Assembly: GCA_030526225.1 (NCBI GenBank)
Contig: JAUNDF010000007.1
Coordinates: 4,863 to 36,862 of the forward strand
Direction of reading: 5' to 3'
Origin: Clostridia bacterium
GTDB lineage: Bacteria; Bacillota; Clostridia; Christensenellales; Aristaeellaceae
Length of the DNA stretch: 32,000 bases
Below, piece after piece: positions 3,753 through 25,997 of the stretch; within the stretch, counting starts at the first letter, position 1; each line of letters starts with the position of its first letter. A program made the translations under genes and the position numbers. The notes under the pieces were generated by a model that was not told the origin of the DNA, made no database searches, and saw only the letters and a list, made by a program, of their open reading frames with translations.

Positions 3753-3890
3753 AGCCGCATTCCTCCTGTCAAGGGAATACCCATAGTATACCCTTGATTT
3801 TCCAAAGCTGCAAGCTTGCATTTTCCGCCGGGAAAAGCTACAATGTAAATTGGATTAATATCGGTAGAAATCATCCGGAGGCGAGGAAGA

Positions 3891-4622
3891 ATGCAACTGA
3901 CCATCCTTGGCAACAACGGTCCGTATCCCGTGCCCGGCGGCGCCTGCTCCGGCTATCTTGTGTATGATGATAAGTCCTGCGTGCAGCTGGATCTGGGCAC
4001 CGGAACGCTTGCCGCCCTTGGCCGCCGCATGGACCCTGAAATGCTGGACGGCCTGCTGTTTTCCCACTGGCATCACGACCATTCCAGCGATGTGCTGCCC
4101 CTGCTTTACCGGCTGGCAGATACCCTCGGTGCCGACGGCAGACAGCTGCAGATCTACGCTCCGGAGGACGAGACCTCACCGGAATACAGGGCGGTGATGG
4201 CTTGCCCTGCCATCCGCCTGACGCAGGTAACACCCGGCATGACCTTTCAGGCGGGGGAACTTCGCGTAACGGTGCATCAGGCGCGGCATCCGGTGCCGGC
4301 GGTGATGTACCGGCTGGAGGATCAGGCGGGCAAGGTGCTGTGCTTCACCGGCGATACCAACACGGTGGCGGGCCTTGAGGATTTTGCCCGTAATGCCGAC
4401 CTTCTGCTGGCGGACGGCTTGTTCCCGGAGGCGGTCTGGTCGGAGGAAAAGCCCCATCTGTCTGCGGCGCTGGCTGCAAAGCTGGCAGCTGATGCAGGGG
4501 CCAAGCAGCTGGTGCTGACCCACTTCAGCCCCCGCTTCAACCAGAAGCAGCTGCTTCAGGAGGCACGTGCCTTCTATAAGAATGTAAAGCTGGCACAAAT
4601 CGGCGATACCTACACGGTGTAA
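3891..4622 (+). CDS. MBL-fold metallo-hydrolase (RNase Z/beta-lactamase-like)
   Basis: 243 aa. Contains the HWHHDH zinc motif and the downstream GDT and H residues typical of the metallo-beta-lactamase fold. GGAGGCGAGGAAGA ribosome-binding site before the ATG. Stop codon is TAA. Confidence 0.8.
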   Translation: MQLTILGNNGPYPVPGGACSGYLVYDDKSCVQLDLGTGTLAALGRRMDPEMLDGLLFSHWHHDHSSDVLPLLYRLADTLGADGRQLQIYAPEDETSPEYRAVMACPAIRLTQVTPGMTFQAGELRVTVHQARHPVPAVMYRLEDQAGKVLCFTGDTNTVAGLEDFARNADLLLADGLFPEAVWSEEKPHLSAALAAKLAADAGAKQLVLTHFSPRFNQKQLLQEARAFYKNVKLAQIGDTYTV

Positions 4623-4629
4623 TGCAGCC

Positions 4630-6891
4630 ATGACCAGGGAAAGATTCTTCAAAACGCTGCATACCTGTCTGCTGCCGCTGTGTGCCCTGACCTTTGCTGC
4701 GGGCATCCTGCTGGGCCGCGCAGGGGGCAGCATGTTGTACGGCTGGCTGGCCCTGATTCCCGCGGTGCTGGCGGTTATCGTGATGCCGAAGAAGCTCCGC
4801 TTTATCGGCGCCGCCTCGGTGATGCTGGTGCTGGGCTTTCTGTGGGGCTATCCGGCATTCCATCCGGCTATGCAGGAGGAAGGACTGTACCGTGTGCAGG
4901 GTGTAATGGCGGATGTCATCACTGTCAAAGGACAGCAGCACAGAACGGTGCTGTGTGATGTTACGCTGAACGGTCAGCCGGCGGGCAGCGATGTCTACTG
5001 GACCTTTTACGCCGAGGAAATGCCGGAAGGGCTGGCCCCGGGCAGACAGGTTTCCTTTGAGGGGGAGCTGTATCATCCGTCAAGCGCGGAGAATCCCGAG
5101 GGCTTCAACTTCCGGGAGTATCTTTTGGGCAGCGGCATCAGCTGTGCGCTGTACGGCAATACAGGGCTGGAGGTCCGTCCGTGCCCCTATTTTTCCCTGC
5201 GGGCCATGGCTGCTTCTGTGCGCCAATCCCTCAGCGATACCATGGCACAAGCCATGAGCCCATAGGCCGCCGCCTTTGCATCAGCCATGCTGCTGGGTGA
5301 CCGGAGCATGATTGATGCAGAGGACAGGGCCGCCTTCAACCGGCTGGGTATTGCCCACATTCTGTCCATGTCGGGCTTTCATGTGGGCATTCTGGCGGCA
5401 ATGCTGATGCTGGTGCTGAAAAAAGCATCGCCGCGCTTCCGGCTTTGCGTGACGGGGCTGGTGCTGGCCTTCTACTGCCTGCTGACCGGCGGTCATGTGC
5501 CGGTGATCCGCGCCGGCTGTCTGGTGCTCATCAGCCAGTACGGCAGGATGAAAAACAGGCGCGTGGATACCCGCTGGGTGCTGTGCGCCGCCTTTATCAT
5601 CACGCTGATGCTTTGCCCGGCGCAGCTTGTTTCCGCAGGCTTCCACATGACCTATGGCGCGGTGCTGGGGCTGAGCATTGTGAGCCGTGCACTGCAAAGG
5701 CTGTCCCCGCTGGGCAGCCGCCCTGTGGGCAAGGCGGTGTGGCAATCCTTCGCGGCCTCTGCGGGCGCGCAGTTCGGCATTCTGCTGCCCCAGCTGTACT
5801 GGTTTCAGCAGCTGCCGCTCATCAGCCTGATATTGAACATGGCGGTGATTCCCTTCGGCAGTCTGCTCATCGGCTGCCTGTGGGTCAATCTCCTGCTGTG
5901 CCTGTGGATGCCTGCGGCGCAGCTGTTCGGCCATGTGACCTCCTTTTTGACGGACATCCTGCTGGGTGCCGTGCGCCTGACGAACACATGGCCGGTGATG
6001 ATGCTCTGGACCCGCCGTGCAACGCTGCTGACGGCGCTGATGTGGGCGGGGATGCTCCTTGTGCTGTGCGTGTCATGGCGGGGGAGGAAAAAGCGGATGG
6101 GCTGCACCTTTGCCGCCATGGCGATGGTGCTGTGCCTGTCCCTGTGCCCGCTGCCCCATCATGGGACGGAATACATCCAGCTGTCTGTGGGCAATGCCGA
6201 TGCCGCCATCCTGCGGGATGAAAATACGGTCACCGTCATTGACACCGGCGAAGACGGCAGTGCAGTCAGCGATTATCTCCATGCCGGACGGCTGTCTGTT
6301 GACCATTTGATTTTGACACACCTGCACATGGACCATCTGGGCGGCGCAGCAGCACTGCTTCAGGACGGCATCCCCATCCGGCGGGTGTATATCCCCGAGG
6401 GCGCGGAAACGGCTGGCATCAGCGACGATGCACGGGCTGTGCTGGCTGCCCTGCGGAACAGCGGGGCGGAAATCGTTGCCGTCAGCCGGGGGGATACGCT
6501 GATGCTGCCCTCCGGCACACTGCAGGTGCTTTGGCCGGAGAAGGGCCGCGTACGCCCGGGGCAGGATGCCAACAGCTCTTCCCTCGTCCTGCGGGCAGAG
6601 CTTCGCGGCAGCACCATGCTGCTCACCGGCGATGTGGACGGCGATTACGAGCATTACGCCGCCGCACCGGCGGATATCCTGAAGGTTGCCCATCACGGCT
6701 CCTACAGCTCCACCGGACCGGCGTTTGTACAGGCTGTTTCGCCCAGAGCGGCGATTCTTTCCGGAAAGACCGCGGGCAGGATTGAGAAAACGAAGGAGCG
6801 GCTGGGCTGCCCTGTGTATGCCACGGGGGAGCGCGGCGCCGTAACGGTGGTGCTGGAGGAAGGCGGCTTCCGCATCAGCACGGTAAAATAA
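4630..6891 (+). CDS. comEC: DNA internalization competence protein ComEC/Rec2 (DUF4131 + Competence + MBL domains) with one in-frame TAG at 5263-5265. Under code 11 it would be a pseudogene or two fragments (4630-5265 and 5287-6891).
   Basis: Both ORFs are in the same frame (4630 and 5287 are each 1 mod 3). Reading through gives ...AQAMSP[TAG]AAAFASAMLLGDRSMIDAEDRAAFNRLGIAHILSMSGFHVGIL, which is the conserved ComEC core. The C-terminus carries HLHMDHLGG (MBL domain). holA is immediately downstream, as in Firmicute comE loci. No Shine-Dalgarno sequence precedes ATG 5287. Confidence 0.85.
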
Positions 6892-6912
6892 GCAATTTTT
6901 GTGAGGAACAGT

Positions 6913-7914
6913 ATGAATCATCGTGAATTGCAGCAGGCCATTGCAGCGGGGAAAATCGGGCGGCTGTACCTGCTGGACGGCACCGAGGAAAACCTGAAGG
7001 ACGAAGCGCTGCAGCTGCTGCGCAAGCAGGTGCTGCAGGAGGGGCTGGAGGACCTGAACGAGGCCGTGATGGACAATCCCCCCACGGACCAGATTATCGC
7101 CGCCGCGGAAACCCTGCCCTTTATTGCAGACAGGCGGCTGGTTATCGTCCGGGATCTGCAGTGCCTGACAGGCCGCGGAGAGACCGATGACCGGCTGAAG
7201 GACTACATGGCCCATGTGCCGGATACCACCGTGCTGGTGTTCTTTACCCGCGGCAAGGCCAACGGCACCAAGGCGCTGTACAAGCAGATTAAAAAGCACG
7301 GCCAGATTGTCACCTTTGAAAAGCTGAAGGGAGCGGAGCTGACAAGGTGGATTGTGGAGGAATTCCGCAAAAACGGCAAGACCTGCTCCAATCAGGTGGC
7401 GGACAGGCTGTCCTTTACCACCGGCACGGATACGGGGCTGTTGACGGCGGAAATTGCGAAGATTTCCTCCATGGCCGATGACCGGGACAATGTGGACCCG
7501 GAGGACATCGACAGGATGGCCACCCGCTCCATTGAATGCACCGTGTTTGAAATGGTGGATGCGGTGGTGGCCGGTCAGCAGTCACGGGCCTTCCGGCTGA
7601 TGCGGGACATGGTCACTGCCGGCGAGGACCGGCTGGGCATCCTGGCCATGCTGCTGCGTCAGTACCGGATGCTGCAGCACGTGAAAATCATGCAGTACGA
7701 AAAAAAGAGCGTGCAGGCCATGCAGCAGAGCCTGGCGGTGGCACCCTTCGTGATGGAGCGGTACCTGCGGCAGGCCAAGAGCTACACCGGCGGTCAGGTG
7801 AAGCGGGCGGTGGACATCTGCCTTGATACGGAATACCGTGTCAAGTCCGGCCGGATGAATCAGGAGGGCTCGCTGGAAGCCGCCATGTTAAAAATCTTTG
7901 CCCTGCGGCAGTAA
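6913..7914 (+). CDS. holA: DNA polymerase III delta subunit
   Basis: 333 aa, counted from the ATG at 6913 (GAGGAA ribosome-binding site at 6903-6908). Delta-subunit-like N-terminus (LYLLDGTEENLKDEAL) and C-terminal domain. Conserved position after comEC. Stop codon is TAA. Confidence 0.85.
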   Translation: MNHRELQQAIAAGKIGRLYLLDGTEENLKDEALQLLRKQVLQEGLEDLNEAVMDNPPTDQIIAAAETLPFIADRRLVIVRDLQCLTGRGETDDRLKDYMAHVPDTTVLVFFTRGKANGTKALYKQIKKHGQIVTFEKLKGAELTRWIVEEFRKNGKTCSNQVADRLSFTTGTDTGLLTAEIAKISSMADDRDNVDPEDIDRMATRSIECTVFEMVDAVVAGQQSRAFRLMRDMVTAGEDRLGILAMLLRQYRMLQHVKIMQYEKKSVQAMQQSLAVAPFVMERYLRQAKSYTGGQVKRAVDICLDTEYRVKSGRMNQEGSLEAAMLKIFALRQ

Positions 7915-7929
7915 GAAAAGAGGAAACCC

Positions 7930-8502
7930 ATGAAACGCAAGGAATTTCTTGATTTATACCAAACGGTGATGGTCACCGACCCCAAAACCGGCAAGCAGAA
8001 GCGCCGGGCCAAGTACATCGGGCCGTATTATGAAACGGACATGGCTTCCAAGCGGAAGCTGGTGCCGCTGCTGTGGGTGCTGTTTGTACTGCAGGCGGCG
8101 GTATACGCCGTCCCCGGGCTGATGTTTTCCACCATGATGACTGCATGGTATGTGCTGGTTCCGTACCTCATCTGCCTGCTGCCCATGCTGTATGCGCTGA
8201 TGGCCATGTTTGAAATCTCCACCATCAAAAATCCCCTGACCCGGGTGAAGCTGGCGGAAGGGCCGGAGAGCGCGAAGAACATGACCACCGCATCTGCCGT
8301 GGTGGGCATCATCTGGCTGGTGTGCGACATCATCTTTGCATTTGCCGGTGCCTTTGGCGCAACGCTTGCAAGCAACATCATCTGCATGGTGTGCGCGGCG
8401 GCCTTCAGCGGCCTGAACGCCATGATGGCAGTGAAAATCCGCACCATGGTGATTACGGAAAAACCGCAGGAGACGGAGGAGCGGCATGAAGGAGAAGCGT
8501 GA
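7930..8502 (+). CDS. Hypothetical multi-pass membrane protein
   Basis: 190 aa. AGAGGAAA ribosome-binding site. About four hydrophobic helices and an acidic tail. I do not recognise a family. Stop codon is TGA. It overlaps the next gene by 17 nt. Confidence 0.55.
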   Translation: MKRKEFLDLYQTVMVTDPKTGKQKRRAKYIGPYYETDMASKRKLVPLLWVLFVLQAAVYAVPGLMFSTMMTAWYVLVPYLICLLPMLYALMAMFEISTIKNPLTRVKLAEGPESAKNMTTASAVVGIIWLVCDIIFAFAGAFGATLASNIICMVCAAAFSGLNAMMAVKIRTMVITEKPQETEERHEGEA

Positions 8503-9790
8503 ATATACCCCCAGAGGCAGGGCAGACAAGGGCGCAAAGTTCCGCGGCTTTTCTCAGCCAAAGCGCCCCTGCGCCGCCAAACAGGAGACCGGTGATACCA
8601 AGGCGAAGACCGGCAAGCCTTCGCAGAAAAAGCCTGTGAGCAAGCTGGCCTGTCCTGTGGCCCACAAGTGCGGCGGCTGTCAGCTGACGACCATGACCTA
8701 CCGCGACCAGCTGGCGCTGAAAAAGAAGCAGGTCACGGAGCTTTTGGAGGGCATCTGTCCGGTGGAGGATGTCATCGGCATGGAGAAGCCCTTCCACTAC
8801 CGCAACAAGGTGCACGCCGTGCTGGGCGTGGATAAGCGTGGCATCCCCGTCAGCGGTGTGTATCAGGAGGGCACCCACCGGCTGGTGCCTGTGAAGTCCT
8901 GCCTGATTGAGGACCGCCGCGCCTCTGCCATCATCCAGACCATTGTGGCCATGCTGCCCCGCTACAAGCTGCGCATTTACAACGAGTACACCCATCGGGG
9001 CTTCCTGCGGCACATTCTCATCCGCACGGGCGAAAAGACAGGGCAGATCATGGTGGTGCTGGTGGCAACGGGCCGTGAATTCCCCGGCTACCGTGCCTTT
9101 GTGGAGGAACTGACGAAAAAGCACCCCGAAATCACCACCGTGGTGCTGAATGTCAACACCCGGGAGACCAGCATGGTGTTGGGGCAGAAGGATTATCCTC
9201 TGTATGGCGACGGATATATGGAGGACATTCTGTGCGGCAAGCGCTTCCGCATTTCGCCCCAGTCCTTCTTTCAGGTGAACGCCAAGCAGTGCGAGATCCT
9301 GTACAGCACTGCCCTTGATATGGCCGGGCTCACCGGCAGGGAAACGGTGCTGGATGCCTACTGCGGCACGGGCACCATCGGCCTTTGCGCCGCTGACAGG
9401 GCCAGGCATGTGCTGGGCGTGGAGCTGAACAGCGCCGCCGTGCGGGATGCCAAGGAAAACGCCCGCATCAACGGCATCAAAAACGCATCCTTCATCTGTG
9501 AGGACGCGGGCCGGTTTATGGTCAAGGCAGCCAGAGAGGGCTCTGTGCCTGATGTGGTGCTGATGGACCCGCCCCGGGCAGGCAGTGACGAGAACTTCCT
9601 CAAATCCCTGCTGACCCTTCAGCCGCCGAGGATTGTGTATGTATCCTGCAATCCCGAAACCCTGGCCCGGGATTTGCGCTATCTTGTGGAAGGCGGCTAC
9701 CGCGCCGAAAAAGCCATTCCCGTGGATATGTTCCCGTGGACGAGCCACGTGGAGACGGTGGTGGCGCTGTCCAAACCCTCTGCGGAGTAA
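8486..9790 (+). CDS. rlmD: 23S rRNA (uracil-C5)-methyltransferase, RlmD/RumA (TrmA) family
   Basis: 434 aa. Fe-S cluster cysteines (CPVAHKCGGCQL), SAM motif (DAYCGTGTIGL) and DPPRAG. Lys/Arg-rich N-terminal extension. GGAGGAG ribosome-binding site. Stop codon is TAA. Confidence 0.85.
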   Translation: MKEKREYTPRGRADKGAKFRGFSQPKRPCAAKQETGDTKAKTGKPSQKKPVSKLACPVAHKCGGCQLTTMTYRDQLALKKKQVTELLEGICPVEDVIGMEKPFHYRNKVHAVLGVDKRGIPVSGVYQEGTHRLVPVKSCLIEDRRASAIIQTIVAMLPRYKLRIYNEYTHRGFLRHILIRTGEKTGQIMVVLVATGREFPGYRAFVEELTKKHPEITTVVLNVNTRETSMVLGQKDYPLYGDGYMEDILCGKRFRISPQSFFQVNAKQCEILYSTALDMAGLTGRETVLDAYCGTGTIGLCAADRARHVLGVELNSAAVRDAKENARINGIKNASFICEDAGRFMVKAAREGSVPDVVLMDPPRAGSDENFLKSLLTLQPPRIVYVSCNPETLARDLRYLVEGGYRAEKAIPVDMFPWTSHVETVVALSKPSAE

Positions 9791-9832
9791 CCAAACACAG
9801 GACACAAAAAACAGAACGGCAGGTGAAAAAAT

Positions 9833-10381
9833 ATGAAGATTGAGAGAATTGTCTGCGACCTGAACGGACACACGCTGGTGCTTCGGAGCGCCGAAAAAGA
9901 GGATGCACAGATGCTGCTTCCGTACCTGAAAAGAGTGTGCGGAGAAACGCGGTTCCTTCTCCGTGAGGCGGATGAATGCGGGGATATGACGCTGGAGCAG
10001 GAAGAATCGTTCATCGTCAGCCATATGGAGGATGAGAAGGCCTGCCTGCTGCTGGCAGAGCTGGACGGCGAATACGCGGGCAACGCTTCCTTCCATGCCG
10101 CGGGTGCAAGCAGGAGAAATGCCCATCGGGCAGACCTCGGCATTGCGCTGTATCAGGCGTATACAGGCATGGGCATCGGCAGAAAGCTGTTTTCTACCTT
10201 GCTGGACATTGTCAAGCAAAGCGGCTTTGAATCGGCATAGCTCACCGTGGTGGAGGGCAACGACCGGGCCATCAGCCTGTACAAGTCCTTCGGCTTTGTG
10301 GAGACGGGTCGAATCCTCAAGGCAAACAAGTACGATGACGGGACGTATTCCGATGATATTTTCATGATGAAGAAATTGTGA
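9833..10381 (+). CDS. GNAT family N-acetyltransferase with one in-frame TAG at 10238-10240. Under code 11 it is truncated at 10240.
   Basis: The same frame continues through the TAG: ...GMGIGRKLFSTLLDIVKQSGFESA[TAG]LTVVEGNDRAISLYKSFGFVETGRIL...MMKKL, then TGA at 10379-10381. The segment after the TAG is the indispensable GNAT motif B / beta-strand region (N..AI.LY...GF...G). Without it the 135-aa product would lack half of the fold. Confidence 0.8.
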
Positions 10382-10405
10382 TACAATGTGCAGGAGGTGC
10401 GGCCC

Positions 10406-10606
10406 GTGAATCAGTCGGAGCGCATGGAAGCCTTTGAAAAAATGCTGGCGGATATACAGGAGCGCGCCGCCTTTGAGCAGCGCAAAATGGAGGAACTGAA
10501 GGCCGCGGGCAAGGAGAAATCCGCCACCTATCGCCAGTACTTCGGCAACAAAATGCTCTACAAAATGATGCTCGATCAGTACCGGGCCTACGGACTGATG
10601 GAATAA
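10406..10606 (+). CDS. Small hypothetical protein, predicted helical/coiled coil
   Basis: AGGAGG at 10392-10397 is followed by GTG at 10406. The ATG at 10424 is an alternative start. The charged heptad-like sequence is MEAFEKMLADIQERAAFEQRKMEELKAAGKEK. Stop codon is TAA. Confidence 0.4.
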   Translation: MNQSERMEAFEKMLADIQERAAFEQRKMEELKAAGKEKSATYRQYFGNKMLYKMMLDQYRAYGLME

Positions 10607-10629
10607 ACCGACAGAAAAGAGGGATTGTC

Positions 10630-11310
10630 ATGAAGATTCCCGCAGGGTTTCTGACGCCCACGGACTTGAATGCCGTGGCATCAAAGGACAGCGGCTACAT
10701 CAACAACAAGGGCGCAAAGCTGTACGCCATGGAGGAGTACCCCGCCGCGGTGGAATACTACCGGCTGGCGGCGGCCATGGGGGATGTACACGCGGTGTCC
10801 AATCTGGGCTACTGCTATCTGTACGGCCGTGCCATGGAGCCGGATGTGCAGCTGGCCATCGCCTATTTCCAGACCGCAGCCATGAAGGGCGATGTGGATG
10901 CCGCCTACAAGCTGGGCGATATCTACGGCAGAGACAAATGGGGCGTGATGGACACGGAAATGTCCCTGTACTACTACCGGATGGCTGTGGGCCTGATTGC
11001 CCCCGACTTGGGCAATGATGCCCGGAGCGTGGTGTTCTGCGACCGGCTGACTGACTACCCCAGCCTGTGCCTTGCCATGGGCCGTGCGTTTATGCCGGGC
11101 GGCATGCTGAATACCGATGTGGAGACGGCCTTCTGCTTCCTGAAAAAGGCGGAGGAGGGCTACGCAATCCAGCTGGCCAACGGACAGAAAATGTATGAAA
11201 AGTCCATGGAGCAGGTACAGCAGCTGCTGGACAACCCTGTTTTTGATTCCATCGGCTTCAAATTCCGGGACATGTTCGATGATGACATCGGGGAGTTTGA
11301 GGACGAATAA
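10630..11310 (+). CDS. Sel1-like (SLR/TPR) repeat protein
   Basis: 226 aa. Repeated A..YY..AA..G...A...LG.CY..G units, for example AVEYYRLAAAMGDVHAVSNLGYCYLYGRAM and AIAYFQTAAMKGDVDAAYKLGDIYG. Acidic tail. Stop codon is TAA. Confidence 0.75.
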   Translation: MKIPAGFLTPTDLNAVASKDSGYINNKGAKLYAMEEYPAAVEYYRLAAAMGDVHAVSNLGYCYLYGRAMEPDVQLAIAYFQTAAMKGDVDAAYKLGDIYGRDKWGVMDTEMSLYYYRMAVGLIAPDLGNDARSVVFCDRLTDYPSLCLAMGRAFMPGGMLNTDVETAFCFLKKAEEGYAIQLANGQKMYEKSMEQVQQLLDNPVFDSIGFKFRDMFDDDIGEFEDE

Positions 11311-15860: not shown

Positions 15861-16604
15861 TTACACGCTCAGGTAACGGTCCATCATAAAGGCGGTGGCG
15901 AAGTACATCACCGCGGTGATGATCAGGGACACGCCGCCGGAAATCAGCATGGCGGCAACGAAGGTACCGGCAGGGGGAATCAGACCGCTGATCCAGCCGA
16001 AGACCATGTTCAGTACCACGAACAGGGCGAAGGCGGCGAGACCGGCAAACTTCTTGCCGTTGAGCAGGGAGCAGGCAAACACATCGGAGAAGGCGGCGGT
16101 CACCACCGTGGCCAGCCAGCTGCACAGCAGCATGCCGCAGAAGGAAATGATTTCAGGGCTGGTGAAGTGAATCTGATCGGTGAACTGCTTCATCACGGAA
16201 CGGAAGAACTCCAGCAGCTGGTCCAGCTGACCGAACTTGCCGAACAGCAGCGTTACATCCAGGAAGCCCAGCGCGCCGAAGAAGACGGCCATCAGCAGCA
16301 TGGAAAGACTGCATTCAAGAACCTTTGCGCCGAGGATTTTGTAGGAGCTGTTGGGGGTCATAAAGAGCATGTAGCTCTGCTTGGTGCTCATGTCCTTGTG
16401 CAGCGTCAGCAGGCTCTGCAGGCCGATGATGATGACGCCGAAGGTGGCTACAAAAATCAGCAGGCCGGCGCCGGTGGACATCCATTGTTCGTTGTTGCCG
16501 TACAGACCAAACATGAACATGATCTGCAGCAGCAGGGTCAGGCCAACAACCACCAGCTTGGTGGTTCTGGTTTTGCGGAACTCATATTTCATCAGCTGAA
16601 GCAT
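15861..16604 (-). CDS. ABC-2 type transporter permease
   Basis: 247 aa with about 6 transmembrane segments. The start is 2 nt after the stop of the ABC ATPase gene. Stop codon is TAA. Confidence 0.7.
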   Translation of the reverse strand: MLQLMKYEFRKTRTTKLVVVGLTLLLQIMFMFGLYGNNEQWMSTGAGLLIFVATFGVIIIGLQSLLTLHKDMSTKQSYMLFMTPNSSYKILGAKVLECSLSMLLMAVFFGALGFLDVTLLFGKFGQLDQLLEFFRSVMKQFTDQIHFTSPEIISFCGMLLCSWLATVVTAAFSDVFACSLLNGKKFAGLAAFALFVVLNMVFGWISGLIPPAGTFVAAMLISGGVSLIITAVMYFATAFMMDRYLSV

Positions 16605-16606
16605 GA

Positions 16607-17308
16607 TTAAATCGCCTCCGTATGTCCGAAAATTTCGCGGTATCTGTCTGCCATGGATTTGCCGTCGTTTTCGCGCATTTCCTCCAGGTCGCGGACCTCA
16701 ATCAGGTTGCCCTGGGAAATGAACACGGCGCGGTCGGCGATGTTTTCCATCTCCTCCACCAGGTGGCTGGACAGCAGCAGCAGCTTGTTGTCGGCGGCTG
16801 CGTTGAGGATGCAGGCGCGGATGTCATCGCGGGCCAGCAGGTCAATGCCGTTGAAGGGCTCGTCGAGCATGTACACCTTGGCATCACGGGCCAGTGTCAC
16901 GGCGACCTTCATTTTGGCGGTCATACCGGAGGACAGGCTCTTGATTTTGTCCTTGGGGTTCAGGTTCAGCTGACCAATCAGCTTGTCGTACACGGCCATG
17001 TCGAAGTCCTTGAAGAAATCGGCATAGTACTTGCCGGCATCGCCGATGGTCATCCAGTCGTAGAAGTAGGGCTCGGTGGACAGGTACGCCACCTGAGCAC
17101 GGCTTGCGATGGATACGGGCTCGCCGTTGAAGTAAACGGTACCGGCGGTGGGCTTAATCAGCCCGGCGGCCATTTTCATCCAGGTGGTTTTGCCGCTGCC
17201 GTTGGGGCCCATCATGGCGTAAATGTGGCCGGGCTCCAGCTTCAGGGTAATGGCGTTGACAGCCGTTTTGCTGCCAAACTTTTTCGTCAGCTCTCTGCTT
17301 TCAAGCAT
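16607..17308 (-). CDS. ABC transporter ATP-binding protein
   Basis: Walker A (GPNGSGKTT), signature (LSSGM), Walker B (VYMLDEPFNGID). I chose the ATG at 17308 (MLESRELTKKFG). It overlaps the GntR stop as ATGCTTGA, which implies translational coupling. Confidence 0.9.
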   Translation of the reverse strand: MLESRELTKKFGSKTAVNAITLKLEPGHIYAMMGPNGSGKTTWMKMAAGLIKPTAGTVYFNGEPVSIASRAQVAYLSTEPYFYDWMTIGDAGKYYADFFKDFDMAVYDKLIGQLNLNPKDKIKSLSSGMTAKMKVAVTLARDAKVYMLDEPFNGIDLLARDDIRACILNAAADNKLLLLSSHLVEEMENIADRAVFISQGNLIEVRDLEEMRENDGKSMADRYREIFGHTEAI

Positions 17309-17666
17309 TGCTGTGTTCCTCCTCAATCATAAGCATATGGATGGCTTCCTCCTTGGTGAAGCCGAGGGTCCGCATGGCGGTCAGGCAGGCGGTGATGGCC
17401 TCCTGTGCCATGGCGATGCGCAGGGCGGTGATGTGGTCTGCATCCTGGGTGACGAAGGTGCCGAGGCCGCGCCGCGTTTCGCAAACGCCCTCCCGCTCCA
17501 GCTCCTGATAAACACGGGCGGCTGTGTTGGGGTTGATGGCGTAGCGCACGGCAAGATCGCGGCTTGACTGCAGCTTCTCACCCGGCCGTAAAGCACCGGA
17601 TGCGATATCACTCTTGATTTCATTGGCAACCTGCAGCCATATGGGTGCGGTTGGTTTAAAATCCAT
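17301..17666 (-). CDS. GntR family transcriptional regulator, YtrA subfamily
   Basis: 121 aa. Winged helix-turn-helix (LQSSRDLAVRYAINPNTAARVYQELEREGV) with a short C-terminal tail typical of YtrA-type regulators that precede ABC genes. Stop codon is TGA. Confidence 0.9.
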   Translation of the reverse strand: MDFKPTAPIWLQVANEIKSDIASGALRPGEKLQSSRDLAVRYAINPNTAARVYQELEREGVCETRRGLGTFVTQDADHITALRIAMAQEAITACLTAMRTLGFTKEEAIHMLMIEEEHSNA

Positions 17667-20592: not shown

Positions 20593-20638
20593 ATATATTG
20601 GTAATTTCTGTGATGACAAATCTCGGGAGGTTGTAAAC

Positions 20639-22093
20639 ATGAAAAAATTTGTTGCAATGCTGCTGGCAGTTGTTCTGCTGCCTGTGATGGCCTTTGCCGC
20701 CGACGGTACCAAGACCGCGCAGCTGGACCCCAGCAACCCCGTATCCCTGACTGTATGGCACTACTACAACGGTGCCCAGCAGGCTGCTTATGATGAACTG
20801 GTGGAGCGCTTCAACACCACCGTTGGCAAGGAGATGGGCATCTATGTGCAAAGCTTCTCCCAGGGCTCTGTCCGCGATCTGGAAACGGCTGTTATCAATG
20901 CCGTGGACGGCGTGATTGGCGCTGAACCCCTGCCCAACATCTTCTCCACCTATGCCGATACCGCTTCCGCTGTGCAGAAGAAGTGCGACCTGGTGGACCT
21001 GAAGGAATACTTCACCGAGGAAGAGCTGTCCGCTTATGTGGATTCCTACATCGGCGAGGGCTATTTCAACAATGACGGTCACCTGTACCTGTTCCCCGTG
21101 GCCAAGAGCACCGAAATCCTGATGATCAACGCCACCGACTGGGAGGACTTTGCCGAGGACACCGGCAGCACCCTGGAGGAGCTGAGCACGGTGGAGGGCA
21201 TCGTCCGCGTGGCTGACCGCTACTATGACTGGACCGATGCCAAGACCCCCGATGTTGCCGATGACGGCAAGGCCTTCTACGGCCGCGATTCCGTATCCAA
21301 CTACTTCATCCTCGGCACCAAGCAGATGGGCGTGGACATCTTCACCGTCAAGGACGGTCAGCTGACCATCAATGCCGACAAGGAACTGATGCGCCGCCTG
21401 TGGGAGAACTTCTACGTTCCCTTCGTCCGCGGCCGCTTTGATGCCCTGGGCAAGTTCCGCTCCGACGACGTGAAGACCGGCGATCTGCTGTGCTACACCG
21501 GCTCCTCTTCCTCTGCCATGTATTTCCCCGATACCGTGGAAACCGATGACGACAGCATCGACATCGACCACATCATCCTGCCCGCCCCCATGTTTGAAAA
21601 CGGTGACAACTACATCGTGCAGCAGGGTGCCGGCATGGTGGTCACCAAGAGCGACGACAAGCACGAGTACGCCGCCGCTGTGTTCCTCAAGTGGTTCACC
21701 CAGCCCGAAAACAGCCTGCGCTTCGTGGTTGAATCCTCCTACATGCCCGTCCGCAAGGATGCCCACAGCATGGAAATGCTGGACAAGGTTATCGCCGACA
21801 ACAACCTGCGCGTCAATTCCAAGAGCTATGACTGCCTGAAGGTGGTTATCGAGCGCACCCACGATGTCCCCGGCTACTACACCGCTGTGTTCCCCAATGG
21901 CAGCAAGGCCCGTTCCATCCTGGACTACAACCTGCTGGACCAAGCAAAGGAAGACAAGGCCGCTGTGGATGAACAGGTTGCCTTGGGCGTAAGCCGTGAG
22001 GATGCCGCCGCTCCCTACATCACCGACGAAGCCTTTGAGGCATGGTATGAGCAGTTCGTTGCCGCTCTTCATGCCGCTGCCTTCAACGAATAA
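20639..22093 (+). CDS. Extracellular solute-binding protein (ABC-type, family 1-like), secreted
   Basis: 484 aa, counted from the ATG at 20639 (GGGAGG ribosome-binding site). Signal peptide MKKFVAMLLAVVLLPVMAFA|AD. SBP-like body (LTVWHYYNG...). No ABC permease or ATPase genes are adjacent. It is followed by the sensor kinase. Stop codon is TAA. Confidence 0.8.
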   Translation: MKKFVAMLLAVVLLPVMAFAADGTKTAQLDPSNPVSLTVWHYYNGAQQAAYDELVERFNTTVGKEMGIYVQSFSQGSVRDLETAVINAVDGVIGAEPLPNIFSTYADTASAVQKKCDLVDLKEYFTEEELSAYVDSYIGEGYFNNDGHLYLFPVAKSTEILMINATDWEDFAEDTGSTLEELSTVEGIVRVADRYYDWTDAKTPDVADDGKAFYGRDSVSNYFILGTKQMGVDIFTVKDGQLTINADKELMRRLWENFYVPFVRGRFDALGKFRSDDVKTGDLLCYTGSSSSAMYFPDTVETDDDSIDIDHIILPAPMFENGDNYIVQQGAGMVVTKSDDKHEYAAAVFLKWFTQPENSLRFVVESSYMPVRKDAHSMEMLDKVIADNNLRVNSKSYDCLKVVIERTHDVPGYYTAVFPNGSKARSILDYNLLDQAKEDKAAVDEQVALGVSREDAAAPYITDEAFEAWYEQFVAALHAAAFNE

Positions 22094-22160
22094 GCTGAAC
22101 CGGCAGAATCAGTAAAGTCCATTGAATACCGCGAAAAAATCTTTGAGAGGAGAAAACCGG

Positions 22161-25100
22161 ATGAAGCGTAAACGGTCATTTTTGTCCATATTTCTGGTGC
22201 CGCTGATGATCGTTGCATTTATACAGGGATTTCTCCCTTTTGCCACGCTGGTTGTCAGTGATGTGAAATCCATCATGGAGAACAACATCATCAGCATGGA
22301 CCAGAACGCTGTGGAAAACCGGCGGCTCACCCTGGAAAACGCCATGGTGGACCGCTGGAGCAGCGTGCTGGGCGAGTCTTCCAGTGTGGCGGAGCATCTG
22401 CAGCAGGTGCTGAAGGACAACGGCGCCGACATCGATGATTTCATTGCCTCGGATGAAATGCAGCAGCAGCTATTGGAAGCCATTTTCCCGGAAATGGTGC
22501 TGGCGCTGCAGAACAACACCACCAGCGGCCTGTTTCTGGTGCTGGACAACGGCAAGGACATGATGCAGCCGGCCAAGTACAACGGCTTCTTCCTGCGGGA
22601 CTCCGACCCCACCAACAAAATCAGCAGCAACACCGACATTCTGCTGGAGCGCGGCAGCAAGCGGCTGGCCCGCCAGCAGAACATCCCCATGGACAGCCCC
22701 TGGGCAACCCGCTTCAAGCTGGAGGGCTTCGGCTACCGCAAGGCGGACGATTTCTTCTACCAGCCCCTGAAGGCCGCAAAGGAAAACCCGGGCGTTGAAC
22801 CACGAATCCTCGGCTACTGGTCCCCGGCCTTCATTCTGGAGGACCACTATCTGGATACCCATCAGATGATTACCTACTCCGTGCCGCTGGTGTATCAGGG
22901 CCGGGTGTACGGCGTGATGGGTGTGGAGGTCTCCACAAGATACCTGGCAACCTATGTCCCCGTCCGCGATCTGGACCAGGGCCTGAACGCCGGCTATGCC
23001 ATTGCCGTCAGCAAGGGCGACGGCGTGTATGAGGTGGTCATGGGCACCGGCTCCCTGTACAAGTCGGTGGTGGGCAACAGCTCCGCCTTCCGCGTGACCG
23101 GCGAGCGCAAGGAACACCTGTACGAGCTGGAAAACGGCGTGGTGGGTGAGCAGAGCGTTTACGCCCTCATTTCCCCCATGAAGCTGTACAGCAACAACGT
23201 TCCCTACGAGGGCACCGAATGGGCGCTGGTGGGCTTTGTAACGGAGAACTCCGTCTTTGCCCCCGGCAATCTGGTGTACGGCCGAATCCTCACCACCATT
23301 CTGGTCTGCTCTGCGGTGGGTCTTTTGATGATTATCCTGCTGGTGCGCAAGGTCACCCGGCCTGTCAACCGGCTGATGGAAAGCGTCCGCCGGGGCTACA
23401 AGGGCCTGAAGGAATACGAACCCTCCTCCGTCCGTTAGGTGGAGGAGCTGCACGATGTGGTGCTGGAGCTGACGGAGGCACAGCAGACAGCCGCAGACAA
23501 GCTGAACGAGGAAAAGGAACGCTACCGCGTTGCCATCGACTCGGCAACGGACGTATTCTTCGTGTACCGCCGCGAAGAGAAAATGCTGGAGATTGTGAAT
23601 GACTCAATCAACAGCGGCGTTTGGTCTCTGGGGGATGAAGAGTGCAGTATCGTGCGCGAGTCCATCCATCCCGAAGACCGGCAGATGTTTATCGACTACA
23701 TCAACAACCCGCAAGGTGACATGGAGATGGAGCTGCGCGTCCGCAGAAGACCCGAGCACCCCTACATGTGGGTAGAGGTCAGCGGCCATCTCTTCGGCGG
23801 CACCGGCGGCGAGCATCTGCGCGTGGTAGGCTATATCCGAAACATCAACCAGCGCAAGCAGCAGGAGCTGGAGCGGGAAATGCGCCAGGTCCTCGACCCG
23901 GCCACCAGCCTGTACCGCGCCGCTGCCGGCTTCAACCGCATGGCGCAGATGCGAAAGCTGAACCCTGTGGGTACGCTGCTGCTGGTGGATATCAACAGCT
24001 TCTCGACCATCAACGAAAAGTATGGCATCGTTTTCGGCGATGTGGTGCTGGATGAACTGGCCAAGCTGCTGCGCGGTGCTGTCAGCGTGCTGTGTCCCGA
24101 GGAAGCACTGCTGATTCGTGCCGGCGGCGACGAGCTGCTGGCATGGCTCCCCGGCGTTGCGGAAGGCCAAACGGCAAGCGTGATGCCCGAACTGGAGCGC
24201 CGCTTTGCTTCCCTGATTCACTCCGCCTCCGTGCCCCTGCGGCTTGACTGGGCCACTGCCCCCGCAGACGGGGAGGTCAGCGATCAGGCACTGGTGCAGC
24301 GCACCAAGCAGAAGCTGGCAGGCGCCTACCATGGCGGCAGCACAAGGGACTTCTCCGAGCCGGTTTCCATCGGCTACAACACCAGAGCCGATATTGCCAC
24401 CCTGGCCCGCAACATGTTTGAGCGCACCGATGATATCGGCGCTGTGCTGGATCTGGTGGCGCTTCGCCTTAAGGAGCAGTACGGCATCACCGATATGCTG
24501 ATTACCGACTTCCGCTACGACAGCCTCTCCAGCACGCTGGAATACTCCTGGCGCAAGGGACCGCAGGCAGATATGCACGAGGTTGTCAGCCACTGTAAGG
24601 AAGAGGAATACCGCCTCTTCTGGCAGCATGTGGAAAACAAGCAGCTCCATGCATATGTGGATGAGCTGTCAAAGCATCCGCTCTTTGCCATGATGGGGCA
24701 GCTTGATGCCGGCATTACCTATCACATGATGGATAACGGCAGCTACTCCGGCAGCATCGTGTTTGCAGGCGCTTCCACGGCCATCCTCGATAACGAGGCC
24801 GACCGCACCCGCCTGACTGAGGTGGGCCGCGCCATCCAGAACCGCATCAATCAGGAGCGTCACGACCAGTCGGCACAGGCCAAGTCCGACTTCCTTGCCC
24901 GCATGAGCCACGAAATCCGCACCCCCATGAACGGCATCATCGGCATGACGGAAATCGCCCTGAAGCCCGGCCAGACCGAAGAACACCGCATCGAGTGCCT
25001 GAAGAAGGTCCGCAGCTCCTCCAACTATCTGCTGGGTCTGCTCAATGACATTCTGGACATGTCCAAGATTGAAAGCGGCAAGATGCAGCTGGTGGAAACG

Positions 25101-25997
25101 GACTTCAATCTGGATAAGCAGCTGCGCGAGCTGCATGTACTGCTGGATGCAAAGTTCCGCGAAAAGAACCAGACCTTTGTCACTTCCTTCGACCTGAAGC
25201 ACAAGTTTTTCCACGGCGATTCCCTGCGCATCAATCAGGTGCTGATTAACCTGATTGGCAACGCGGTCAAGTTTACCGGGGAAGGCGGTCATATCTACCT
25301 GACCGTGAAGGAAACCGTGCTGGACAGCAGCCGCTCTCAGCTGTCCTTCTCCGTGCGGGATGAAGGCATCGGAATCTCTGCCGAAGACAGGGAACGCATC
25401 TTCCTCAGCTTTGAGCAGGTCAATTCCCCCGAAGCCAACCGTCAGGGCACCGGCCTTGGTCTGGCCATTTCCAGCCGTATGGTGCACATGATGAACGGCG
25501 AAATTCAGCTGGACAGCGAGGTTGGCCGCGGCAGTGACTTCCACTTCGACCTGATGTTGTCCCCCGTGGACATGCAGGAAGAGGCCGCTGAAGAGCGCGT
25601 GGACTTCGACTTTACCGGCGTGAAGGTGCTGGTGGCCGAGGACAACGAGCTGAACATGGAAATCATCTGCGAGGTGCTGGGTGACTACGGCATGCTGGTG
25701 GATGGCGCCACAGACGGCCGCAAGGCAGTGGAGAAATTCGCCGCCGCCGCGCCGGGCACCTATGATCTGGTGCTGATGGACATTATGATGCCCAACATGA
25801 ACGGCATTCAGGCCACCAGAGCCATCCGCTCGCTGGACCACCCCGACAGCAAGACCGTGCCCATTGTGGCCATGACCGCCAACGCCTTTGATGAGGATGT
25901 GAAGCGCTCTCTGGCCGCCGGCATGAACGAGCACCTGTCCAAGCCCATCAACATCCCCGAGCTGGAGAAAACGCTGGCAAGGGTGCTGAAAAAGTAA
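22161..25997 (+). CDS. Hybrid sensor histidine kinase/response regulator with one in-frame TAG at 23436-23438, inside the HAMP-like linker. Domain order is TM, extracellular sensor, TM, HAMP, PAS, GGDEF-like, HisKA, HATPase, REC. Under code 11 it would be two fragments (22161-23438 and 23439-25997).
   Basis: Both ORFs share a frame (22122 and 23439 are each 0 mod 3). The junction reads ...LLVRKVTRPVNRLMESVRRGYKGLKEYEPSSVR[TAG]VEELHDVVLELTEAQ. Downstream are PAS, a GGDEF-like segment (VDINSFSTINEKYGIVFGD...RAGGDELLAWL), the H-box SHEIRTPMNGIIG, the G-boxes GTGLGLAIS, and REC (VLVAEDNELNMEI...DLVLMDIMMP...KP). Start is the ATG at 22161, preceded by GAGAGGAG. Stop codon is TAA. Confidence 0.85.

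Follow-up and report, generated by a model that had tools for sequence, protein, structure and literature searches.

Two long open reading frames (ORFs) that share one frame and are parted by a single TAG raise the question of whether this codon ends one protein or stands for an amino acid within another. The stretch analysed here, called the window, comprises 32,000 nucleotides (nt) from the metagenome-assembled genome (MAG) of a Clostridia bacterium (assembly GCA_030526225.1, contig JAUNDF010000007.1, positions 4,863 to 36,862 of the forward strand). The TAG (23436-23438, plus strand) follows a membrane sensor ORF of 425 codons and precedes, in the same frame, an output ORF of 852 codons, the two being parts of a hybrid sensor histidine kinase gene. 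An original prediction, made from the letters of the sequence, had regarded both ORFs as one gene joined across the TAG. Our results support this view. In addition, two further genes with an in-frame TAG were found, encoding ComEC and a GNAT acetyltransferase, and all three TAGs of the 32-kb window fall in alignment columns dominated by glutamate (Glu). The reading that we prefer, with a probability of about 0.5, is that UAG is decoded as a sense codon in this organism, most likely as Glu, and that the kinase is made full length.

The upstream ORF (22122-23438) is closed by the TAG. The ATG at 22161 is its most probable true start, because the N-termini of the homologues match there (MKKK..IFLIP..), which would give a sensor part of 425 amino acids (aa). 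Directly 3' of the TAG, the GTG at 23439 opens 852 codons with TAA 25995-25997 at their end. The peptides quoted in the original prediction, RKVTRPVNRLMESVRRGYKGLKEYEPSSVR before the TAG and VEELHDVVLEL after it, are present, as is the pyrimidine-rich run CCCTCCTCCGTCCGT. In the joined product the TAG position (X) is flanked as ...EPSSVR-X-VEELHDVVLELTEAQQ... Both halves are composed like real coding sequence, with a GC content at third codon positions (GC3) of 0.80 in the sensor half and 0.78 in the output half, and at second positions (GC2) of 0.37 and 0.36, respectively. The features of the locus are as follows.

22161-25997 (+): gene of a hybrid sensor histidine kinase, of 1,278 codons with the TAG read through
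23436-23438 (+): in-frame TAG no. 1, in the juxtamembrane linker, where the aligned Glu is invariant
22161-23435 (+): sensor module, with the first transmembrane helix (TM1), an extracytoplasmic domain of ~340 aa, the second transmembrane helix (TM2) and the first linker helix
~22179-22256 (+): TM1
~23286-23345 (+): TM2
23439-25997 (+): output module, with the second linker helix, a coiled coil, PAS, GGDEF, an uncharacterised region, HisKA, HATPase_c and REC
23440-23459 (+): Shine-Dalgarno-like (SD-like) TGGAGG(AG), formed by the V-E-E codons after the TAG, with GTG 23457 11 nt later
~23652-23834 (+): PAS_3, weak Pfam match
23955-24212 (+): GGDEF, Pfam
24879-25079 (+): HisKA, Pfam, E=6e-18
25215-25559 (+): HATPase_c, Pfam, E=5e-26
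25626-25976 (+): REC (Response_reg), Pfam, E=2e-24

Pfam searches with the joined product gave HATPase_c, Response_reg, HisKA and GGDEF above the cut-offs, together with weak matches to PAS_3 and, in the sensor module, to an MCP-like PDC domain (PDC_1). The domain order is thus PAS-GGDEF-HK-REC (HK, histidine kinase), as had been proposed, and HisKA, HATPase_c and a C-terminal receiver are present in one polypeptide, which defines a hybrid kinase. For the GGDEF domain (window 24060-24110), the Pfam match takes in no more than positions 28-109 of the 161 in the profile, and its signature is GGDEL in the window and a degenerate RAGADQ in the homologues; for these reasons cyclase activity of this domain appears doubtful. 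Sensor and kinase parts share one frame with the TAG between them, and whether they are covalently joined here hinges on the decoding of UAG. A stop at the TAG would sever the sensor from all output domains, a point on which the original prediction was right. The sensor would be orphaned, and the only kinase possible would be a soluble one re-initiated at GTG 23457. The same prediction held that the output ORF lacks a ribosome-binding site. This is so for GTG 23439 and is not so for the in-frame GTG 23457, which has TGGAGG 11 nt upstream. Most real genes in the window carry a comparable SD-like site, and TGGAGG with GTG 23457 is possibly a re-initiation site that arose by chance.

In the NCBI annotation the sensor half is a protein of 391 aa (P0001, 'hypothetical protein Q4C54_02135', from the MAG Clostridia bacterium) and the output half is one of 846 aa (P0089, 'ATP-binding protein'), whose length puts its start at GTG 23457. 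P0001 begins at an internal GTG and is without TM1 (window 22122-22302), while the homologues point to ATG 22161.

The homologues show how the ORFs belong together. With a 665-aa query that bridges the junction, the window's own P0001 and P0089 were retrieved as well as homologues, more than 60 of which cover 100% of the query in single proteins with 42-45% identity. The full-length homologues, 42-49% identical overall, are each a single polypeptide across the TAG site. All homologues that extend to the junction continue across it, and the comparison with full-length orthologues, suggested as a check by the original prediction, disclosed no split two-gene version among them. The TAG column is Glu in 22 of 22 homologues (14 plus 8 shorter ones), and in the linker alignment of 14 sequences (A4) the positions P6, G17, G20 and E31 are invariant, E31 being the TAG position. 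Since the junction is free of gaps, Glu is found in all homologues and none is split there, the alignments indicate that the two ORFs are the halves of one ancestral gene, which encoded one polypeptide with a GAR codon at the TAG site. Homologues of 450-510 aa were considered as natural split forms and rejected: all of them have Glu at the junction and continue beyond it, until a contig end or a frameshift cuts them off. Many metagenome-derived kinase homologues (P0037, P0040, P0104 and others) are of odd length (987-1160 aa), with out-of-frame-looking tails in the HisKA/HATPase region, which suggests assembly breaks or frameshifts in this conserved, multi-copy part.

The linker itself had been described as a HAMP domain, with the proposal that a HAMP hidden Markov model would span the junction. 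This was not borne out by either Pfam or PDB profile tests. The Pfam HAMP family (PF00672) gave no match at E<=1 with the whole protein or at E<=10 with the linkers of the window protein and three homologues. HAMP is also absent from the precomputed Pfam lists of 120 homologues, and a profile of the 14 linker sequences, compared with PDB, matched no HAMP-containing chain. The linker resembles HAMP only in its position directly after TM2 and in the pattern P...G..G...E-x-x-E-L. A two-helix layout of the HAMP type, with Pro in helix 1 and Glu opening helix 2, is seen in A4 as a sequence pattern only.

The window was then searched for pairs of long open segments with only one stop between them, and the list of every TAG-terminated ORF was gone through. 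Two more genes of the same kind were found.

4630-6891 (+): ComEC/Rec2 gene, 753 codons; DUF4131 38-177, Competence 220-484, Lactamase_B 521-711
5263-5265 (+): in-frame TAG no. 2 (ComEC), after DUF4131 and before the Competence domain
9833-10381 (+): GNAT acetyltransferase gene, 182 codons; homologues of ~182 aa align over residues 1-181
10238-10240 (+): in-frame TAG no. 3 (GNAT), in mid-fold

The ComEC homologues (~120) are all full length, with ~750 aa. In the genomes of 80 relatives the codon at the ComEC TAG site is GAA in 29, GAG in 26, GAY in 13, CAR in 4 and another codon in 8. Glu is thus encoded in 55 of the 80, and none of them has TAG there. At the GNAT site Glu was found in 55 of 60 homologues, and the GNATs in PDB that align across it have E or Q. 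The closest GNAT homologue (P0241, 62% identity, from an organism of 26% GC) has Cys at this position. A GNAT gene lies beside ComEC-holA in the nearest relative (L094) and was dismissed as a counterpart, not being an orthologue of the one in the window. Because no SD-like site was detected where translation could restart behind the TAGs of ComEC and GNAT, and because the GNAT gene is cut in mid-fold, the downstream pieces do not appear credible as separate genes.

The TAG is therefore not specific to the kinase gene, which the original prediction had missed. With two more TAGs at Glu positions in the same window, the question moves from site-specific read-through to the general handling of UAG by the organism, and the kinase TAG is one instance of this handling, not a peculiarity of its gene. 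At all three sites the frame is continuous, the homologues are fused and Glu is the dominant residue. An in-frame stop in several unrelated genes, always in columns dominated by one residue, is the pattern by which a stop reassignment is recognized, and it is found here with n=3 only.

The rate and type of these codons are unusual. The window has three in-frame TAGs in 9,571 codons of 29 genes. In the relatives, targeted tblastn with the syntenic MBL, ComEC and holA genes (93 loci) gave a single internal stop in 108,194 aligned codons. The rate in the window is about 34 times this baseline, with a Poisson P of ~1e-4 for at least three events. Two ORF-to-ORF BLAST screens for in-frame stops in relatives were discarded because off-frame 'shadow' alignments in GC-rich DNA dominated them. 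The relatives' sole internal stop (L046 11042-11044, in MAG SIG357, with a contig coverage of 3.6x) is also a TAG in ComEC, at a position other than that in the window and within a hydrophobic stretch. With a flat mutation spectrum and the codon counts of the window, GAG to TAG makes up 277 of the 2,467 one-step routes to a stop, and three events out of three by this route have a P of ~0.0014. A pure G:C to T:A spectrum leaves 963 stop-creating routes, 277 of them GAG to TAG, and a P of ~0.024. By conservation, the three TAG columns rank high among the Glu columns of their proteins (top 14%, 19% and 12.5%), with a combined P of ~0.07, on which no claim rests.

Furthermore, no other damage was detected. 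The coding sequence of the window has no frameshifts and no in-frame TAA or TGA, and no second lesion was found in the 2,213 codons of the kinase, ComEC and GNAT genes. Of 20 other genes scanned with Pfam, 17 had matches, with full or near-full profile coverage. The terminal stops of the 29 genes are 21 TAA, 8 TGA and no TAG. In the relatives (80 loci, crude gene call) 482 TGA, 401 TAA and 66 TAG were counted, so that TAG makes up ~7%. The lack of TAG terminators in the window was at first a candidate for a striking signal and was dropped, since it is not significant against this baseline. TAA makes up ~72% of the stops in the window despite a GC3 of ~0.78, and the relatives together favour TGA.

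The window is part of a bacterial chromosome and not of a TAG-recoded phage, since its genes include fba, VanY, holA, an rlmD-like gene, transporters and regulators, and since the order MBL-ComEC-holA is syntenic with the nearest relatives. The contigs of these relatives (L094 and L095) carry ordinary genes, and with TAG at the ComEC site in none of the 80 genomes the proposed use of TAG as sense is not a trait shared by the clade among the relatives available.

The single assumption that UAG is decoded as sense explains why in-frame stops are so frequent, why all of them are TAG and fall in Glu columns, and why neither other damage nor TAG terminators are seen. From these patterns we infer the decoding of UAG, the identity of the residue, the tRNA and, possibly, a weakening or loss of release factor 1 (RF1). 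In the simplest mechanism, a copy of tRNA-Glu would have changed at anticodon position 36 to CUA and would read UAG. With such a tRNA, changes from GAG to TAG would be neutral. Many Firmicutes are without GlnRS, and such a CUA tRNA would not be mischarged with Gln in them as it is in E. coli. The inserted residue is probably Glu, with Gln as the second choice. Read-through of UAG would give a full-length kinase of 1,278 aa, a full-length ComEC and a full-length GNAT enzyme. In the kinase the TAG would stand for the invariant Glu codon at the start of the second linker helix, and a signal sensed by the extracytoplasmic domain would reach the PAS, GGDEF, kinase and receiver modules by way of TM2 and the two-helix linker. 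In its strict form the proposal is that an uncultured, Christensenellales-like lineage of gut Clostridia, seen in a single sample, has reassigned UAG from stop to Glu genome-wide, by a CUA tRNA derived from tRNA-Glu together with a lost or disabled RF1. We put this form forward tentatively, as quite possible.

Several points weigh against UAG being sense, and some of them are at the same time support for the main rival explanation, in which UAG terminates normally and three independent GAG to TAG nonsense mutations have made the kinase, ComEC and GNAT genes recent pseudogenes or null alleles of this strain, perhaps on a background of strong drift or of a mutator biased to G:C to T:A changes (a mutY or mutM defect). 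The events are only three. All the genes concerned (competence, acetyltransferase, sensor kinase) are dispensable. Each TAG is one G to T step away from GAG, relatives using GAA or GAG, and a single change of this kind has the same look as a nonsense mutation. The absence of TAG among 29 terminators has a P of ~0.12 at the 7% baseline and is weak evidence. No tRNA gene was found in the window, and prfA is not within it either. The kinase TAG is missing from what was recovered of the Logan assembly described below. No close relative was found in the GTDB representatives, the JGI metagenomes or a collection of 5.8 billion proteins, where the best ComEC has 53-55% identity; a scan of the GTDB representative genomes with the kinase junction (as a single protein) gave no relative, and one of the JGI metagenomes with ComEC gave nothing above 47% identity. 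Finally, the Codetta screen of more than 250,000 genomes found no bacterial UAG reassignment, so the prior for one is low, and its authors caution that in-frame stops of pseudogenes are non-random. Three nonsense mutations are also favoured by the SD-like TGGAGG before GTG 23457, from which at most some 846-aa soluble kinase would be made beside the 425-aa orphan sensor, by the NCBI annotation of the pieces as separate proteins, and by the TAG in the ComEC of L046, since this MAG of 3.6x coverage shows that MAGs do contain such lesions. However, the rate of ~34 times the baseline is difficult to explain in this way. The window has no frameshifts, no lesions of TAA or TGA type and no further signs of decay; it is compact, otherwise intact and of 58% GC, unlike a decaying genome. 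Even a pure G to T spectrum leaves the P of ~0.024 given above, and the load of G to T changes needed (~1% of GAG codons) would disable about a tenth of all genes. Each nonsense event would be ordinary, and their conjunction is improbable on the computed figures. We therefore consider that nonsense mutations may be the explanation, as a possible but somewhat doubtful one.

The remaining explanations have less in their favour. The TAGs could be errors of sequencing, assembly or binning, that is, consensus errors or minor alleles in place of true GAG codons. There is a single MAG from a single run, the organism has been seen in one sample only, and oxidative damage in the preparation of libraries characteristically leaves G to T changes. 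An artefact is nevertheless unlikely, because two Logan contigs, unitig-based and assembled independently from the raw reads of SRR24915835, are 100% identical to the window over 7.4 kb (3834-9754 and 9730-11192) and contain two of the three TAGs, that of ComEC in contig L001 and that of GNAT in contig L093. Errors of the damage type are infrequent and do not make it into the consensus of two assemblers, and other error signatures, such as frameshifts or broken domains, were not found. The overlap of these two contigs, both from one run, is just 25 nt long (window 9730-9754), so the read graph branches there; strain variation or a repeat may be the cause. Programmed read-through at particular sites, or regulated suppression, would keep UAG as a stop genome-wide, with leaky or conditionally suppressed ambers in a subset of genes, in the manner of the rare TTA codon and bldA in Streptomyces or by a tRNA supplied by a phage. 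It would fit the occurrence of the TAGs in accessory or regulatory genes only, and two of the three have G as the next base. However, no sequence or structure motif is common to the three sites, the residues normally inserted when near-cognate tRNAs read through UAG are Gln, Tyr or Lys and not Glu, and neither a suppressor tRNA nor phage genes were found within the window; we regard this explanation as very unlikely. UAG might also mean pyrrolysine, the only natural sense decoding of UAG known in prokaryotes, as in bacteria that use it or in the archaea reported to do so genome-wide. All three sites are conserved acidic positions, which a bulky derivative of lysine fits poorly, the TAGs are in unrelated genes, and pyl genes and methylamine methyltransferases are absent from the window. 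It is the least probable of the explanations considered, with hardly any chance of being right.

The gene directly upstream of the kinase encodes a likely functional partner of it, as their adjacency suggests.

20630-22093 (+): extracellular solute-binding protein gene, SBP_bac_8

A small GntR-type regulator gene (17301-17666, minus strand) overlaps the start of an ABC ATPase/permease pair (15861-17326, minus strand) by 26 nt, which is an ordinary arrangement.

If UAG is indeed read as Glu, this would be the first natural reassignment of amber to a standard amino acid in bacteria and the first code with UAG as Glu outside the ciliates. A new genetic code in a free-living, GC-rich gut bacterium with a non-reduced genome would challenge the idea that code changes need genome reduction or AT pressure. 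Standard pipelines, including the NCBI annotation of this MAG, would split or truncate a share of the genes of the organism, and a natural chassis that is free of RF1 or carries a suppressor would be of interest for genetic-code engineering. If the TAGs are nonsense mutations, the window holds an unusual cluster of null alleles of the same type in one strain, which is a useful warning, and the split kinase is to be annotated as a pseudogene and not as two proteins.

Comparison with known systems begins with the kinase itself. The read-through product matches, from end to end and with 42-49% identity, an uncharacterised family of Clostridia hybrid kinases (P0002-P0120) with a PDC/Cache-type sensor followed by PAS-GGDEF-HisKA-HATPase-REC, and only the member in the window has a stop codon at the invariant Glu of the linker. 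Amber suppressor strains (E. coli supE and similar) and recoded E. coli with RF1 deleted work by the mechanism proposed here, a tRNA with a CUA anticodon that competes with RF1 or replaces it. These are laboratory mutants or engineered strains, however, and their natural genes do not depend on suppression. Code 15 of gut phages (TAG read as Gln, in crAss-like and Lak phages) also uses amber as sense in the gut microbiome through a suppressor tRNA, whereas the TAGs reported here are in a bacterial chromosome, as the fba, holA, ComEC and transporter genes and the synteny attest, and the residue aligned with them is Glu and not Gln. To our knowledge, UAG is established as Glu only in the nuclear code of peritrich ciliates (table 30, TAA and TAG read as Glu). 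The peritrichs are eukaryotes in which UAA and UAG are both reassigned, while TAA is the main terminator in the window (21 of 29). Sense decoding of UAG is on record for pyrrolysine, for gut phages (Gln) and for eukaryotes; we found no bacterial reassignment of UAG to a standard amino acid in the literature. Some archaea are described as using UAG for pyrrolysine genome-wide (Kivenson et al. 2025, as cited in the gTranslate preprint). According to that citation this is a prokaryotic case in which coding density is barely lowered, so that standard pipelines miss it, and it differs from the one proposed here in its archaeal host, in its need for Pyl machinery and in its residue. All known bacterial stop reassignments involve UGA (Codetta screen; gTranslate preprint 2026; 2026 Actinomycetota report). 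In these codes (tables 4 and 25; UGA to Trp in Mycoplasmatales and others, UGA to Gly in Gracilibacteria/Absconditabacteria) the in-frame stop stands at positions of one residue in unrelated genes, as in the window, and is unused as a terminator; in the window TAG ends none of the 29 genes, with the P of ~0.12 given above. In contrast, the codon here is UAG, the tRNA and the loss of the release factor are putative, and the host is a gut member of the Clostridia with 58% GC, neither reduced nor AT-rich.

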